DNA from: Squalus acanthias
Lineage: Eukaryota
NCBI GenBank assembly: GCA_030390025.1
Contig: CM059450.1
Span: 5,704,001-5,768,000, forward strand
Direction of reading: 5' to 3'
Length of the DNA: 64,000 nucleotides
Shown here one piece after another: positions 6,215 through 22,386 of the stretch (its first letter is position 1; the number at the start of each line of letters is the position of its first letter). The notes beneath the pieces were generated by a model. It saw only the letters and a program-made list of their open reading frames with translations, was not told where the DNA came from and did no database searches. Both the position numbers and the translations under genes were made by a program.

Positions 6215-8973
6215 TCAGTCACTCTCCCCCAGGGTGTGCTTGTCAAACAGGTACTCTCCCATGCCATTCTCAGGGGCTCCCAGTCTCTTCAAGTTGGTGA
6301 TGTGATCTCCCAGCTTCTTGATCATCTTCACTTGCTCATCCAAGTAGTGGGTCTCCAGGAAGTCACACAACTGGAAAAAGGAGAAACCAGTCAGTACAGA
6401 CAACAGATCAAGGATAACACTGAGGAATTGTTCCACATCTTCTCCTGGATGGTACATACAACTAGTGCACTTGGAGCAGTTCATTGATTTGGTGCATATT
6501 AGACTACTACACATGGTCAGTTTACAATTGGATCCAGAACTCCTTTACAATGCTTCAGATACTGGGTTGCCCCAGGACAAGTTTAGGTGATGAGTCTACA
6601 GTATGTGATCTAGATCCTCCTTTAAAAAAAGGCTTGTTGATATCTCTGCAATTGACAAACAAGACTACTTGTTATGGAGATCTTACCAACAGTTGCATTA
6701 AATGGCAGAAAAAGCCTCAAGCCATCATCCTCAACACATCCAAGATTCATTGTTGGAACATTAGGAACTTACATGAGGGTCAGTCCTCTCAGTGGAGAGT
6801 TTGTGCAGATCCAGCAGACTCTGGTTGACATTCTTCTCCATCTGCAGAGCTCTCTGCATCACCACCAGTCCATTGCTCCACTCGTCCTGCTCTGGTTTCT
6901 GAAGAGAATAAATGAGATCTCAGCCAGTTCAGTTACAATGTATGAAATTGAAGGGCAATCTACATCAAGGGTTAAAAGGCAACACTAATGTTAATCTATA
7001 TTACCACACCTGTGAATAGTAATTTCTGAATTATGCAATCAACTACTGGAATTAAATTGAAGGCAATTCCTACACAAGCTGTTTTCTTAAAGACCTGACT
7101 AAGGTCACCATACAGGAGGCCACCCATTTTAGTTTTAGCTACTAGTCTGTTGGGCAGAAGCCCATTCCTTCTGAACATCCATATACATTGATCTTCCGAA
7201 AGTCATTAGCGCCGTGACACAAACATCAAAGTCATACCCACTCACCCTAATCAGTTTATACCTGCCAAGTTTTCACTTACTCTCCCCAACACTAGTAATT
7301 TTACACAAATTAATCTCACTGACTTATAAGACTGCTTGGGTGTATTGTTAAGATAACCATTTAAAATAATGAGGAAATTGTGTTTTAAAGCAATCTAAAT
7401 AGCATCACAGGAGACCCCTCCTTAGTTAAATCCAACCTTGATGTCCTCCAAGATGATTCGGCCTCCACGCCGATTCTGGAATTTCATCAGTTTCTCAGCG
7501 TGCTCGTGTTTCTCATGTGACTGCTCCTTGAAGAACTCGGCAAAGTGACGCAGGGCAACATCATCCCGGTCAAAGTAATAGGACTGTGGAGAGAGAATCA
7601 AGAAAAAAAAAAGCTAGTCGTACCTAGATCTTTTCTAGTGTTATGGCAGCCACATCAGTTTAAACATTGGGGAAGCAACTATATAACATTAATATTTTGT
7701 ATAATAAAGCAATGCTTTTGTTAGAAAACGTCGATTGTGAAAACAAGCAAGATTTCACTTATTCCATTAAGAGCTTATTGCTCCCCGTGGCAGCAGCTAA
7801 ACTGGCTAATTAACGGCTCAAGAAGATTGTCAAGATTTGAAGTTTCATTTGAGCACACTTCTAGGAATGGTACCCAGTAATATTCATTAATTGTAGATGA
7901 TTTCCCTTTCACCAGATTCTCTATTTATTGAAGCAAAGACCTCTATAGGAACTGGTCCCTCTCCGCCACCATAACTTTGCCAGAAGTGTCACAAACAGCA
8001 TTTCTGCCACAGTTCTGGCAAAGTTGCAGAAGCAGAGAGTGGGAGCAGCTCCAAGAAAATTCCCAGCCAATCCAGGCCAGTGCAGTGAGGTTAGCAGCAG
8101 ACAAAAGCCACTGAAATGCTCAAGTCTCTGGAAATAGAGACCTAGTCACTAACACTTTGCCAATAGTGCAGGATTCCGAGTACTGCTACTCCAGAGAAAA
8201 GGGGAAAATCTGACCAACCAGCATTTTATTGACTAGTCAACCCAGGGGGGAAATAAAAAAGTTAAAAGCGGGGATGTGATACCACCTTCTACATGCAAAG
8301 ACACTTCAAGGGAGGAGATTAGACATACACCAAACACCATAGATAGATTCTAGAGATAACTGAATAGACAAGATCAAGCTTGGAGAGCAGCAGACAGAAG
8401 GATTTCAAAAGGTAAGGATAATTTGGCAAGTCCAAGACAGCTGAAGATTTAAGAGACAAAAAGGGTAGGATACAGGGTTAGATAAGACTGCAGAAGCTGG
8501 GTGGGGCAACACCATGGCCAGATCTACAAGAGAAAGACAAGGATTCTGAATTAATTATATTGGGAGAAATGGACAGCATATAAATAGCTGTTCCAGAATA
8601 CTTCTATTGCAAGTTCATGTAATCTAGGAACATGAGTCAGATTACAAATTAAACCCTACAAAAGGGCGAAGCTACAACAAGGAGAATATTCATGAGCTGC
8701 ACAAGAGATAAATGTCCCACAATATAGATTGAAACAACATTACAAAACTGCCATTTTTGCATAGTTTAGAAAAAAATGTAGTGAGAAAAAAAAAAAATTC
8801 TACCCAACTAGAATTTAGTAACTTCATATTACTCAATCTTCTTGAAGGGGTCAACAAGAACCAAAACTCACCATGGAGAGATAAACATAGGAGGAATAGA
8901 GCTCCATGTTGATCTGCTTGTTAACAGCATCCTGGCTGTCCTTGTGGTAGTTCTGACACACTTGGGAATCCAT
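6215..8973 (-). CDS. fth1: Ferritin heavy/middle-type subunit, copy 2 (class A, E62K), 176 aa
   Basis: Exons 8973-8872, 7583-7437, 6898-6773, 6370-6215; GT-AG introns; [10 protein letters not shown]...[10 protein letters not shown]...LGESD*. Confidence 0.93.
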
Positions 8974-9014
8974 CCTGCTTTCTCTGGGTAGCTCCTGATG
9001 AATGGCCTTCCTCC

Positions 9015-9100
9015 TATCTATATACTCCTGGTCAACAGCTGCCTTTAATAAAGGGCAGGGTACCCAGACGATGAGTGACAATTTTCAGTAGCCAATCGGG
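9015..9100 (-). promoter_or_regulatory. Class-A core promoter: TATA-like TATATAGATA plus inverted CCAAT (shared by copies 1-4)
   Basis: TATATAGATA at 9024-9015, about 40-50 nt upstream of the ATG; agccaatc at about 9090-9097; conserved in the four class-A copies. Confidence 0.55.
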
Positions 9101-19535: not shown

Positions 19536-19758
19536 TTCTGTTGTGGCAGAAACCCAAATTACAGGGTTCCCCCAACATGTAGTGTCACTTTAAGGAAGAC
19601 AAGTTCAATAGTCAATAGCTTTTATTTGCAGCTGCAGTGAGTTACTACAATCCTTCACAGAAATACTTTGTAGAGCTCACAATCAAAGCCTCACACTAGA
19701 GGTCACTCAATATACAGGGTGGTGCATCTGCAATATCAAATATAGTCCTGCAGTAAAT

Positions 19759-22386
19759 TCAGTCACTCTCCCCCAGGGTGTGCTTGTCAAACAGGTACTC
19801 TCCCATGCCATTCTCAGGGGCTCCCAGTCTCTTCAAGTTGGTGATGTGATCTCCAAGCTTCTTGATCATCTTCACTTGCTTATCCAAGTAGTGGGTCTCC
19901 AGGAAGTCACACAACTGGAAAAAGGAAAGATAGAAACCAGTCAGTACAGACAACAGATCAAGGATAACTGAGGAATTGTTCCACATCTTCTCCTGGATGG
20001 TACATACAACTAGTGCACTTGGTTGATTTGGCCCCATGTTAGACTACTACACAGTCAGTTTACAATTGGATCCAGAACTCCTTCCCATGCATTTTATTGC
20101 TTCAGATACTGTGTGGTCCCTGGGACAAGTTTAGTGATCAAGTCTACAGTAGGTGATCTAGAGGCTGCTTAAAAAGGGCTTGTTGAAATCTCTGCAATTA
20201 ACAGACAGACCTACTAAATACAGAGATCGTGCCAACAGTTGCATTAAATGGCACAAAGCCCCAGCCATCATATGAAACACATCTGAAGATTCATAGTTGG
20301 AACAGTAGGAACTTACATGAGGGTCTGTCCTCTCAGTGGAGAGTTTGTGCAGGTCCAGCAGACTCTGGTTGACATTCTTCTCCATCTGCAGAGCTCTCTG
20401 CATCGCCACCAGACCATTGCTCCACTCATCCTGCTCTGGTTTCTGAAGAAAAAAAAAAATCAGCCAGTTGAGTTCCAATGTATGAAATTGAAGGGCAATC
20501 TATAGCAAGGGTTAAAAGGAAACTCTAATGGCCATCTAGGTTATCACACCTGTGAATAGCAATGACTGAATGTTGCAATCCACTACTGGAATTAAGTTGA
20601 AGGCAATTCCTACACAAGCTGTTTTCTTAAAGACCTGATGTAAGGTCACCAGAACGTCACTCAGTTTTAACTACCAGTGTGTTGTGCAGAAACTCATTCT
20701 TTCTGAACATCCACAGACATTGAGTCACTGAACTACTGGATCTGGGAGGATCAAAGAACAAAGGTATACCCATCCTTATCAGTTTATACCTTACCAAAGT
20801 ATTGGCTCACTCCAACACTAGCAATTTTACTCAGATTAACCTCACTTGCTTTTAGGAACTTATAGATGTGATGGTAAGGTAACTATTAAATAATGATGAA
20901 AATTGGCAATCTAATTGTATCACAGACAACCCCTCCTTAGTTAAATCCAACCTTTATGTCCTCCAAGATGATTCGGCCTCCACGCCGATTCTGGAATTTC
21001 ATCAATTTCTCAGCATCCTCGTGTTTCTCATGTGACTGCTCCTTGAAAAACTCAGTAAAGTGACGCAGGGCAACATCATCCCGATCAAAGTAATAGGACT
21101 GTAGAATCAAAAAAAAGTCAAAGCTAGATAGTTTGTAGTGTTATGGCAGCTGATCAGTTTAATGAAGTCAGTGATATTTTGTTTAGTCAAGCAATGCTAA
21201 ACTGGCTAATTAAAGATTGTTAAGAGCTTTGACGAAGAGTCAGCACACAGCCACTTGTGGGATAAACAATACTACTAATTAATTGTAGGTTAAAAACATG
21301 AAACAAGATTCAGAGCTTGAATTTCACCAGTTTCTCTCACCAGTCACCATTTATTGAAGCAAAGACCTCTAGTAGGTCTTGGTCCCTCTCCACCACCATA
21401 ACTGCCACAAGTAGCATTTCTGCCACAGTTCAGGCAAAGTTACAGAAGCAGAGTGGGAGCAGCACCAAGGAAGTTCCCAGCCAATCCAGACCGGCGAGGT
21501 TAGCAGTAGACAAGAGCCACGGTGAAAAGCCTAAAGCCGAGCTCTCTGCAAGTAGAGACCTAGTCACCAGCTCTTGCTAATAGTGCAGGATTCTCAGTAC
21601 TGCTGCTCCAATGGAAGAGAAAAATCAGTGTACCCAGAATTCTACTGGCTAGTCACTCATTAGGGGAAAAACCCAAAATTAAAACTGGGGGTGGGGGTGG
21701 ATTTGATACCACCTTCTACATGCCAAAAAGGAGGAAAATAGAAACACACTAAGCATTGTAGAAAGAGGCAAGGGATAACTAAATACACAAGAACTATCTT
21801 GGAACAAGGAGGGTTTAGGGAGTGCTCCAGACAGGAGAATTGAGCAAAAATAGTTTGTAGAGACCAAGACAGCTGAAGTGTTAAAAGTCAGAAGGCTGGG
21901 ATAGAGTTAGAGAAGGTTGCAGAAGCTGGCTGGGGCAACACCATGGCCAGATCTACAAGAAAAAGACAAGGATTCTGAATTATAGAGAGAGACATGGATA
22001 GCATATAAATAGTTTTTCCAGAACACTTCTATTGCAGACTCATGTAATCTAGGAAGATTAGTCATTTTAAAATTTAAACCCCTCAGGAGGTTGGAGCTGC
22101 TACAAGGGAGAATATTCATGAGCTACACAAAAGAAATGGTCTGCAATATAGATTTAAACACATTACTTCATAACTCCCATTGTTGCACAATGTAGTGAAA
22201 GAGAGAGCAATTCTACTCAACTAGAATTTAACAACTTCATATTACTCAATCTTCATGAAGGGGTCAACAAGAACCAAAGCTCACCATGGAGAGATAAACA
22301 TAGGAGGAATAGAGCTCCATGGTGATCTGCTTGTTAACAGCATCCTCACAGTCCTTGTGGTAGTTCTGACGCACTTGGGAATCCAT
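19759..22386 (-). CDS. fth1: Ferritin copy 4 (class A; E62K, H65D, E140K), 176 aa
   Basis: Exons 22386-22285, 21098-20952, 20442-20317, 19914-19759; GT-AG introns; open frame. Confidence 0.9.

Follow-up and report, generated by a model that had tools for sequence, protein, structure and literature searches.

A 64,000-nucleotide stretch of the Squalus acanthias genome (G000:C27:5704001-5768000; hereafter the window) lies within a tandem array of ferritin genes, and three of these, copies 2, 3, and 4 of the window, encode lysine instead of glutamate at ligand position 62 of the ferroxidase center. Residue numbers were set by alignment to the human H chain in PDB. These K62 copies likely represent a real, previously unreported, and independently arisen class of ferroxidase-dead subunits. 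On balance, we favor a model in which they are expressed as noncatalytic subunits that would co-assemble with E62 subunits, giving mixed cages in which iron is stored in bulk, probably in oocytes.

As an earlier note on this DNA had proposed, the frames and splice sites of copies 2 to 4 are intact: each has four exons of the reference lengths (102, 147, 126, and 156 nt), GT/AG at 6/6 junctions, and a frame of 176 amino acids. Relative to the human H chain, all three carry E62K and R63H, and copies 3 and 4 also carry H65D. The bridging ligand E62 is lost, and codons 62 to 65 encode KHEH in copy 2 and KHED in copies 3 and 4 where copies 5 to 11 encode EREH, with the AAA codons lying where that note had placed them.

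The 1.06 Mb surveyed around the window contained 103 ferritin genes bearing exon 2, comprising 99 near-identical array copies (89 intact, spread over ~0.74 Mb from ~5.52 to 6.26 Mb on C27) and four divergent genes at the left end (g001 to g004). The nearest named proteins to the array copies were shark ferritins. Promoters and introns divide the array into six subfamilies, not the two classes A and B first described; flanks of different subfamilies are ~50% alike, the background level, whereas the likeness between coding sequences is mostly 90-98%. K62 was found in 13 of the 99 copies (11 intact KHED, 1 intact KHEH, and g090, which is frameshifted and adjoins an assembly gap), and a genome-wide pattern search returned the same 13 copies, one retrocopy, and two matches with one mismatch. 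All 3 intact class A copies have K62, as do 10 of 40 class C copies (two of the 40 poorly assigned), and the equation of class A with K62 was therefore rejected. The catalytic ligand set (E27, E62, H65, E107, Q141, and Y34) is incomplete in the 12 intact K62 copies, with K62 in 12/12, D65 in 11/12, and the rest kept. No change at ligand positions 27, 34, 61, 62, 65, 107, or 141 was seen in the 76 intact E62 copies, which argues that K62 is more than chance. Assembly error at K62 was considered and rejected, the K62 letters being present in independent public runs.

Glutamate 62 bridges two irons, and E62K combined with H65G is reported to inactivate human H ferritin (PMC6929972); E62K alone is said to abolish activity in the germ-cell ferritin FTHL17 (PMC7760355). 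By analogy with these E62K proteins, K62 very probably abolishes the di-iron ferroxidase center of the shark subunits. In L chains, K62 forms a salt bridge with E107. A similar pairing may occur inside the helix bundle of the shark subunit, in which case H65D, E140K, and E134Q would reflect a subsequent relaxation of constraint along the iron path; E140K occurs in two K62 copies (g034 and g082) and E134Q in one, against 0/76 E62 copies for each. Residues for assembly and for the channels are otherwise unchanged, so that co-assembly with E62 subunits is likely. The K62 subunit would be translated without iron control, because no iron-responsive element (IRE) precedes the gene: there was no Rfam IRE match in the window or in seven array tiles (L101-L104, L053, L054, and L090), and in the regions scanned IREs precede only g002 and g003. 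Copy number and exon-2 conversion would determine the K62 share. The retention of K62 copies is most simply explained by an L-like benefit, and an L-like role is plausible, about evenly balanced in our judgment; there is a similar chance that retention reflects a share of inert subunits lowering peroxide output and favoring stable mineral storage. Met144 is present in all array copies checked, so that even the E62 copies can be called active only by inference.

The K62 haplotype has moved between subfamilies. Exon 2 of g033 (class A, copy 3 of the window) is identical to that of g082 (class C), yet no intron of the two genes can be aligned. Descent of the K62 copies as a single lineage was rejected by the approximately unbiased (AU) test on exons 1, 3, and 4 (p = 0.027); on the coding sequence without codons 62-65, the same clade was not rejected (p = 0.229). 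The identical exon, the unalignable introns, and the first of these tests together indicate that the cassette was transferred by conversion, and that class C gained K62 through exon-2 transfer between subfamilies.

Class A copies are old and constrained. Their pairwise synonymous divergence (dS, 0.13-0.17) agrees with an intron mismatch of 11-16%, while nonsynonymous divergence (dN) is 0.015-0.025; the mean dN/dS of 0.13, the check that the earlier note had called for, signifies purifying selection, and the E62 classes gave 0.16-0.25. Private alleles outside codons 62-65 number 8 nonsynonymous to 7 synonymous in class A and 20:16, 10:6, 3:3, and 23:13 in the E62 classes, so that class A shows no sign of relaxation, at modest power. 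A processed K62 retrocopy at 90.34 Mb on C14 gave 22:3 (class A versus retrocopy, Fisher p = 0.024). It has exons 1-4 joined, reads K62 L63 E64 D65, and is 87.7% (291/332) like the best array copy, or 12% decayed; because it is spliced, a K62/D65 mRNA must have been present in the germline long ago.

Present expression of the K62 copies is likely, on the evidence of this retrocopy and of the spliced joints and KHED letters in run X1, a run taken to be RNA by guess only; no run bearing the haplotype is on record as RNA. In X1, three ferritin exon joints are spliced, with zero cover in unique intron bins, and a 65-nt contig spans KHED with 0 differences. KHED accounts for 428 of 2024 summed depth at position 14590 in X1, 365/1239 in run X2 (organism B), and 858/3535 in run X3 (organism C), although contig depth tracks expression poorly and does not measure copy number. 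The three runs share an identical 59-65 nt across KHED at 21-29% of depth. One 589-nt contig of X2 joins KHED, with one difference, to a class A-type intron 2 that is ~13% diverged, and class A-type intron letters in X3 have no match among the array copies here (at most 6/22). Almost none of the sequence words occurred in runs X8 and X10-X12 (X9, 0.06), which has no bearing on expression.

The search of other chondrichthyans proposed earlier gave K62 paralogs in Heptranchias. Among the matches listed, to which the counts in this paragraph refer, K62 was present in 7 of 153 database proteins scanned, six from Heptranchias perlo and one from Pristiophorus. The Heptranchias proteins (6 of 33) include one KWED and two isoforms of one gene, and four further proteins of that species have N62. 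No KHED protein was found among the 153, a weak negative, as the listings covered 15 members of each cluster and clusters ranged up to 180; searching helix B with P0082 yielded 6 matches and no further K62 species. In a lamniform cluster (P0153, P0152, and P0030), ligand 27 is K or R, and one member also has D65; P0152 is labeled Salmonella yet is shark-like.

In a maximum-likelihood protein tree of 49 rows, the array forms one shark clade (100/98) apart from H chains (99/97), mammalian L chains (100/99), and the fish/chimaera lower subunit (99/95), with deep branching poorly supported. The K62 copies derive from E62 sisters inside this shark-specific array, in agreement with the earlier proposal of origin from one H/M-type gene. 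Although the tree separates the array from L, an AU test did not reject the K62 copies and L as one clade (34 log-likelihood units lower, p = 0.115). It is their nesting among near-identical E62 shark sisters, and not this test, that argues for an independent origin. The right flank of the array contains CHMP2A- and TRIM28-like exons, with RUVBL2 at 1.2 Mb and glycogen synthase (GYS) on the same contig, and genes of this kind are the neighbors of human FTL on 19q13; the array is located in an M/L-chain chromosomal neighborhood. Grouping with FTL orthologs, once offered as grounds for discarding the idea, is consequently no clean refutation, the more so because teleost M and tetrapod L ferritins are reported to be orthologous (PMC4117605). 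FTH1 proper did not turn up in this genome.

The likeness to mammalian L has limits. Shark K62 copies share with it K62 with E107 kept, E57, E61, and E64 on the cavity face, and the M/L-type neighborhood, but they retain E27, with D or H at 65, where the L references P0227 and P0285 have G65 and Y/H27; they also have H60 rather than E60, H63, several copies, and no IRE, and only 0.02-0.04 changes per site separate them from the E62 shark sisters among which they nest. The fish/chimaera lower subunit likewise comprises M/L-lineage subunits with altered ligands, but it is a separate old clade (chimaera and salmonid members) into which g001 falls and the K62 copies do not.

FTHL17, a germ-cell E62K ferritin without ferroxidase activity and multicopy in mouse, makes clear that a ferritin can carry E62K and not be L-like (PMC7760355). 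By this precedent the K62 subunit could serve the germline in some way other than iron storage, whether regulatory, nuclear, or as a less stable homopolymer, which would fit the separate class A promoter and the germline retrocopy. The two systems share E62K, ferroxidase loss (predicted in the shark), several copies (in mouse), and a germline link, which in the shark consists of the spliced K62 retrocopy. FTHL17, which is intronless and H-derived, is X-linked and H-like with D61, whereas the shark copies have four exons and E61, fall outside the H clade, and are interleaved with near-identical E62 copies. Moreover, their coding sequences are 94-98% identical to those of E62 copies with assembly and channel residues kept, and K62 stands behind a class C promoter beside E62 copies, suggesting co-expression. 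We regard such a role as very unlikely.

Another suggestion is that KHED exchanged the ferroxidase center for a new inter-subunit metal site on the two-fold axis (S59, H60, and H63, with E67 near) that would bind Fe(II), Cu, or Zn. H63 accompanies K62 in 13/13 copies, S59 and H60 are present in the shark copies, and R63H has been engineered at the C2 interface of human H ferritin, where S59, H60, and 63-methylhistidine bind Fe(II) (PMC11638945). However, codon 63 varies freely through CpG decay, K62 copies of Heptranchias have R63 or W63, and the engineered copper site also needs L56H and E67H, both absent here; we give this site little credence.

Several observations weigh against the mixed-cage model. 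Ferroxidase loss and co-assembly are predictions. Nothing specifically L-type has been gained: E107 and the cavity acids at 57, 61, and 64, whose retention the earlier note read as L-like, are indeed kept in copies 2-4 but equally in E62 copies. The L nucleation carboxylates are E57, E60, E61, and E64, with E140 assisting (PMC12746419; the first four also PMC13411386), and this set is incomplete here, with H60 in all K62 copies and K140 in g034 and g082. An older candidate inert subunit, g001, was already at the locus. Eight of the ten class C K62 copies lie within a 13.7-kb two-gene repeat whose units are 99.3-99.9% alike in 5/6 comparisons, and are therefore counted as one recent event, an amplification that is possibly in part an assembly artifact. 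Conversion from E62 donors could mimic the constraint on class A, and the contrast with five pooled retrocopies (42:18) was not significant (p = 0.24). No contig joins KHED to a splice joint. KHED was absent from run X5 (0/841 depth), and K62 from 75/76 Pristiophorus proteins among the matches listed, the exception looking broken, so that K62 is dispensable in some relatives.

Many of these points would suit a tolerated, nearly neutral haplotype in a redundant array, dead but harmless and drifting in frequency by conversion and unequal crossover, with selection on the fold only, since cages would be spoiled by any subunit that misfolds. The array still has about 76 intact E62 copies, the class C K62 copies are recent duplicates, K62 is absent in organism E and nearly so in Pristiophorus, and the pooled-retrocopy test was not significant; a single transition turns GAA into AAA, and codon 63 is a CpG hotspot (R, Q, and H here; C and W in other sharks). 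Neutrality nevertheless sits poorly with the persistence of K62/H63 in three class A copies whose introns have diverged by 11-16% and which are surrounded by converting E62 exons, with the identical letters across KHED in runs X1-X3, and with the recurrence of ligand-to-basic changes (E27K/R in lamniforms), and we consider it rather unlikely. A far-reaching extension of the mixed-cage model holds that squalomorph sharks rebuilt an H/L-like ferritin inside an IRE-free oocyte array, with a KHED exon-2 cassette more than 100 million years old, shuttled by conversion between promoter subfamilies, tuning the inert share of egg iron cages, and with His63 as a new two-fold-axis metal site; as a whole this is improbable.

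Table 1. Ferritin gene copies and associated elements in the window (positions count from its first nucleotide)
Feature	Position	Strand	Remarks
Copy 1	1511..2187	-	broken class A gene with class A promoter; deletion runs from the middle of exon 1 into the last part of exon 3 and takes out exon 2
Copy 2 (g032)	6215..8973	-	class A, intact; K62 H63 E64 H65
Copy 2 exons	8973-8872, 7583-7437, 6898-6773, 6370-6215	-	
Copy 2 codons 62-65	7500..7511	-	KHEH, AAA CAC GAG CAC; K62 AAA at 7509-7511
Copy 2 promoter	9017..9096	-	class A; CCAAT-like ATTGG, TATA-like TTTATTAAA and TATATAGA; motif scan only
Copy 3 (g033)	11923..15920	-	class A, intact; K62 H63 E64 D65; also E134Q
Copy 3 exons	15920-15819, 14671-14525, 12593-12468, 12078-11923	-	joints spliced in run X1
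Copy 3 codons 62-65	14588..14599	-	KHED, AAA CAC GAG GAT; K62 AAA at 14597-14599
Copy 3 promoter	15963-16042		class A set as in copy 2; motif scan only
Copy 4 (g034)	19759..22386	-	class A, intact; K62 H63 E64 D65; also E140K, N25T, A52T
Copy 4 exons	22386-22285, 21098-20952, 20442-20317, 19914-19759	-	
Copy 4 codons 62-65	21015..21026	-	KHED, AAA CAC GAG GAT; K62 AAA at 21024-21026
Copy 4 promoter	22430-22510		class A set as in copy 2; motif scan only
Copies 5-11 (g035-g041)	25148..64000	-	class B; E62 R63 E64 H65; copy 11 extends beyond window

The window also contains a processed ferritin exon 3-4 fragment with a stop and poly(A) (2879-3140, plus strand). This fragment is dispersed over many chromosomes and inside array units (589 first-look Pfam candidates in all) and looks mobile-element-borne. 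Intron-containing ferritin copies outside the main array were seen at L131-L133 (C3) and L134 (C3388). Among open reading frames of the flanks, 4/107 had gene-like or weak Pfam matches, and 2 more had retroelement matches.

The divergent genes beside the array differ among themselves. g001 (L094:3880-6199 and L095:3126-6236, minus strand), the older candidate inert subunit, has Q107 and S141, and g004 (L100:9031-9132 and L101:1252-4255, plus strand) is intact, with K61, Q65, and K140 and no IRE. g003 (L100:2551-2749, minus strand; C27 ~5.4966 Mb) has an N-terminal extension, rich in arginine and similar to a mitochondrial targeting peptide, that recurs in Heptranchias P0329, and an IRE-bearing upstream alternative first exon (L100 ~5855-6062) that looks frameshifted; it is possibly an intron-containing shark mitochondrial ferritin. 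The terminal array copy g103 (C27 ~6.262 Mb) has G62 and K134, as does Carcharodon P0328, and the two may represent a second conserved inert variant. The array changes strand at an assembly gap (C27 6174131-6174449), and the many indels of the two copies flanking it are likely consensus errors. A very long stretch from L123:4763 to L126:1900 (C27 ~6.39-6.42 Mb), open in several frames on both strands, had no Pfam match in two tested pieces and is probably a tandem repeat.

The Greenland and white shark cluster is described as tandem, with more than 100 mostly full-length genes, ancient, common to sharks, and, in the Greenland shark, ovary-specific (bioRxiv 10.1101/2024.09.09.611499); the array of ~100 full-length copies found here (99 copies, 89 intact) is of the same kind, and many copies are annotated in Heptranchias, Pristiophorus, Heterodontus, Scyliorhinus, Carcharodon, Cetorhinus, and others. 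That account, in its accessible part, labels copies FTL or FTH1 by similarity and is silent on ferroxidase ligands, subfamilies, conversion, and IRE loss. The hadal snailfish fthl27 expansion is likewise a tandem ferritin amplification, of 14 copies, with no inactive subclass described in the accessible part of the report (PMC10746142).

The array is already published, E62K is likewise a defining change of mammalian L and of germline FTHL17, and inert ferritin subunits arose several times; the surprise is capped because array and E62K solution were each known. The literature searched contained no account of the K62 shark subclass, of the way it spread by conversion, or of the lack of an IRE, most subscription papers and preprint supplements lying outside the search. 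If the K62 class is what it appears to be, ferritin subunits without ferroxidase activity would have arisen independently once more, and in this case the dead subunit still shares 95% identity with its active sisters, so that the minimal changes for an H/L division of labor (62, 63, and 65) would be directly testable. The case would also show how conversion confined to exons can carry a functional cassette from one gene to another when their introns can no longer be aligned, and may help to explain the upkeep of some hundred clustered ferritin copies in sharks.

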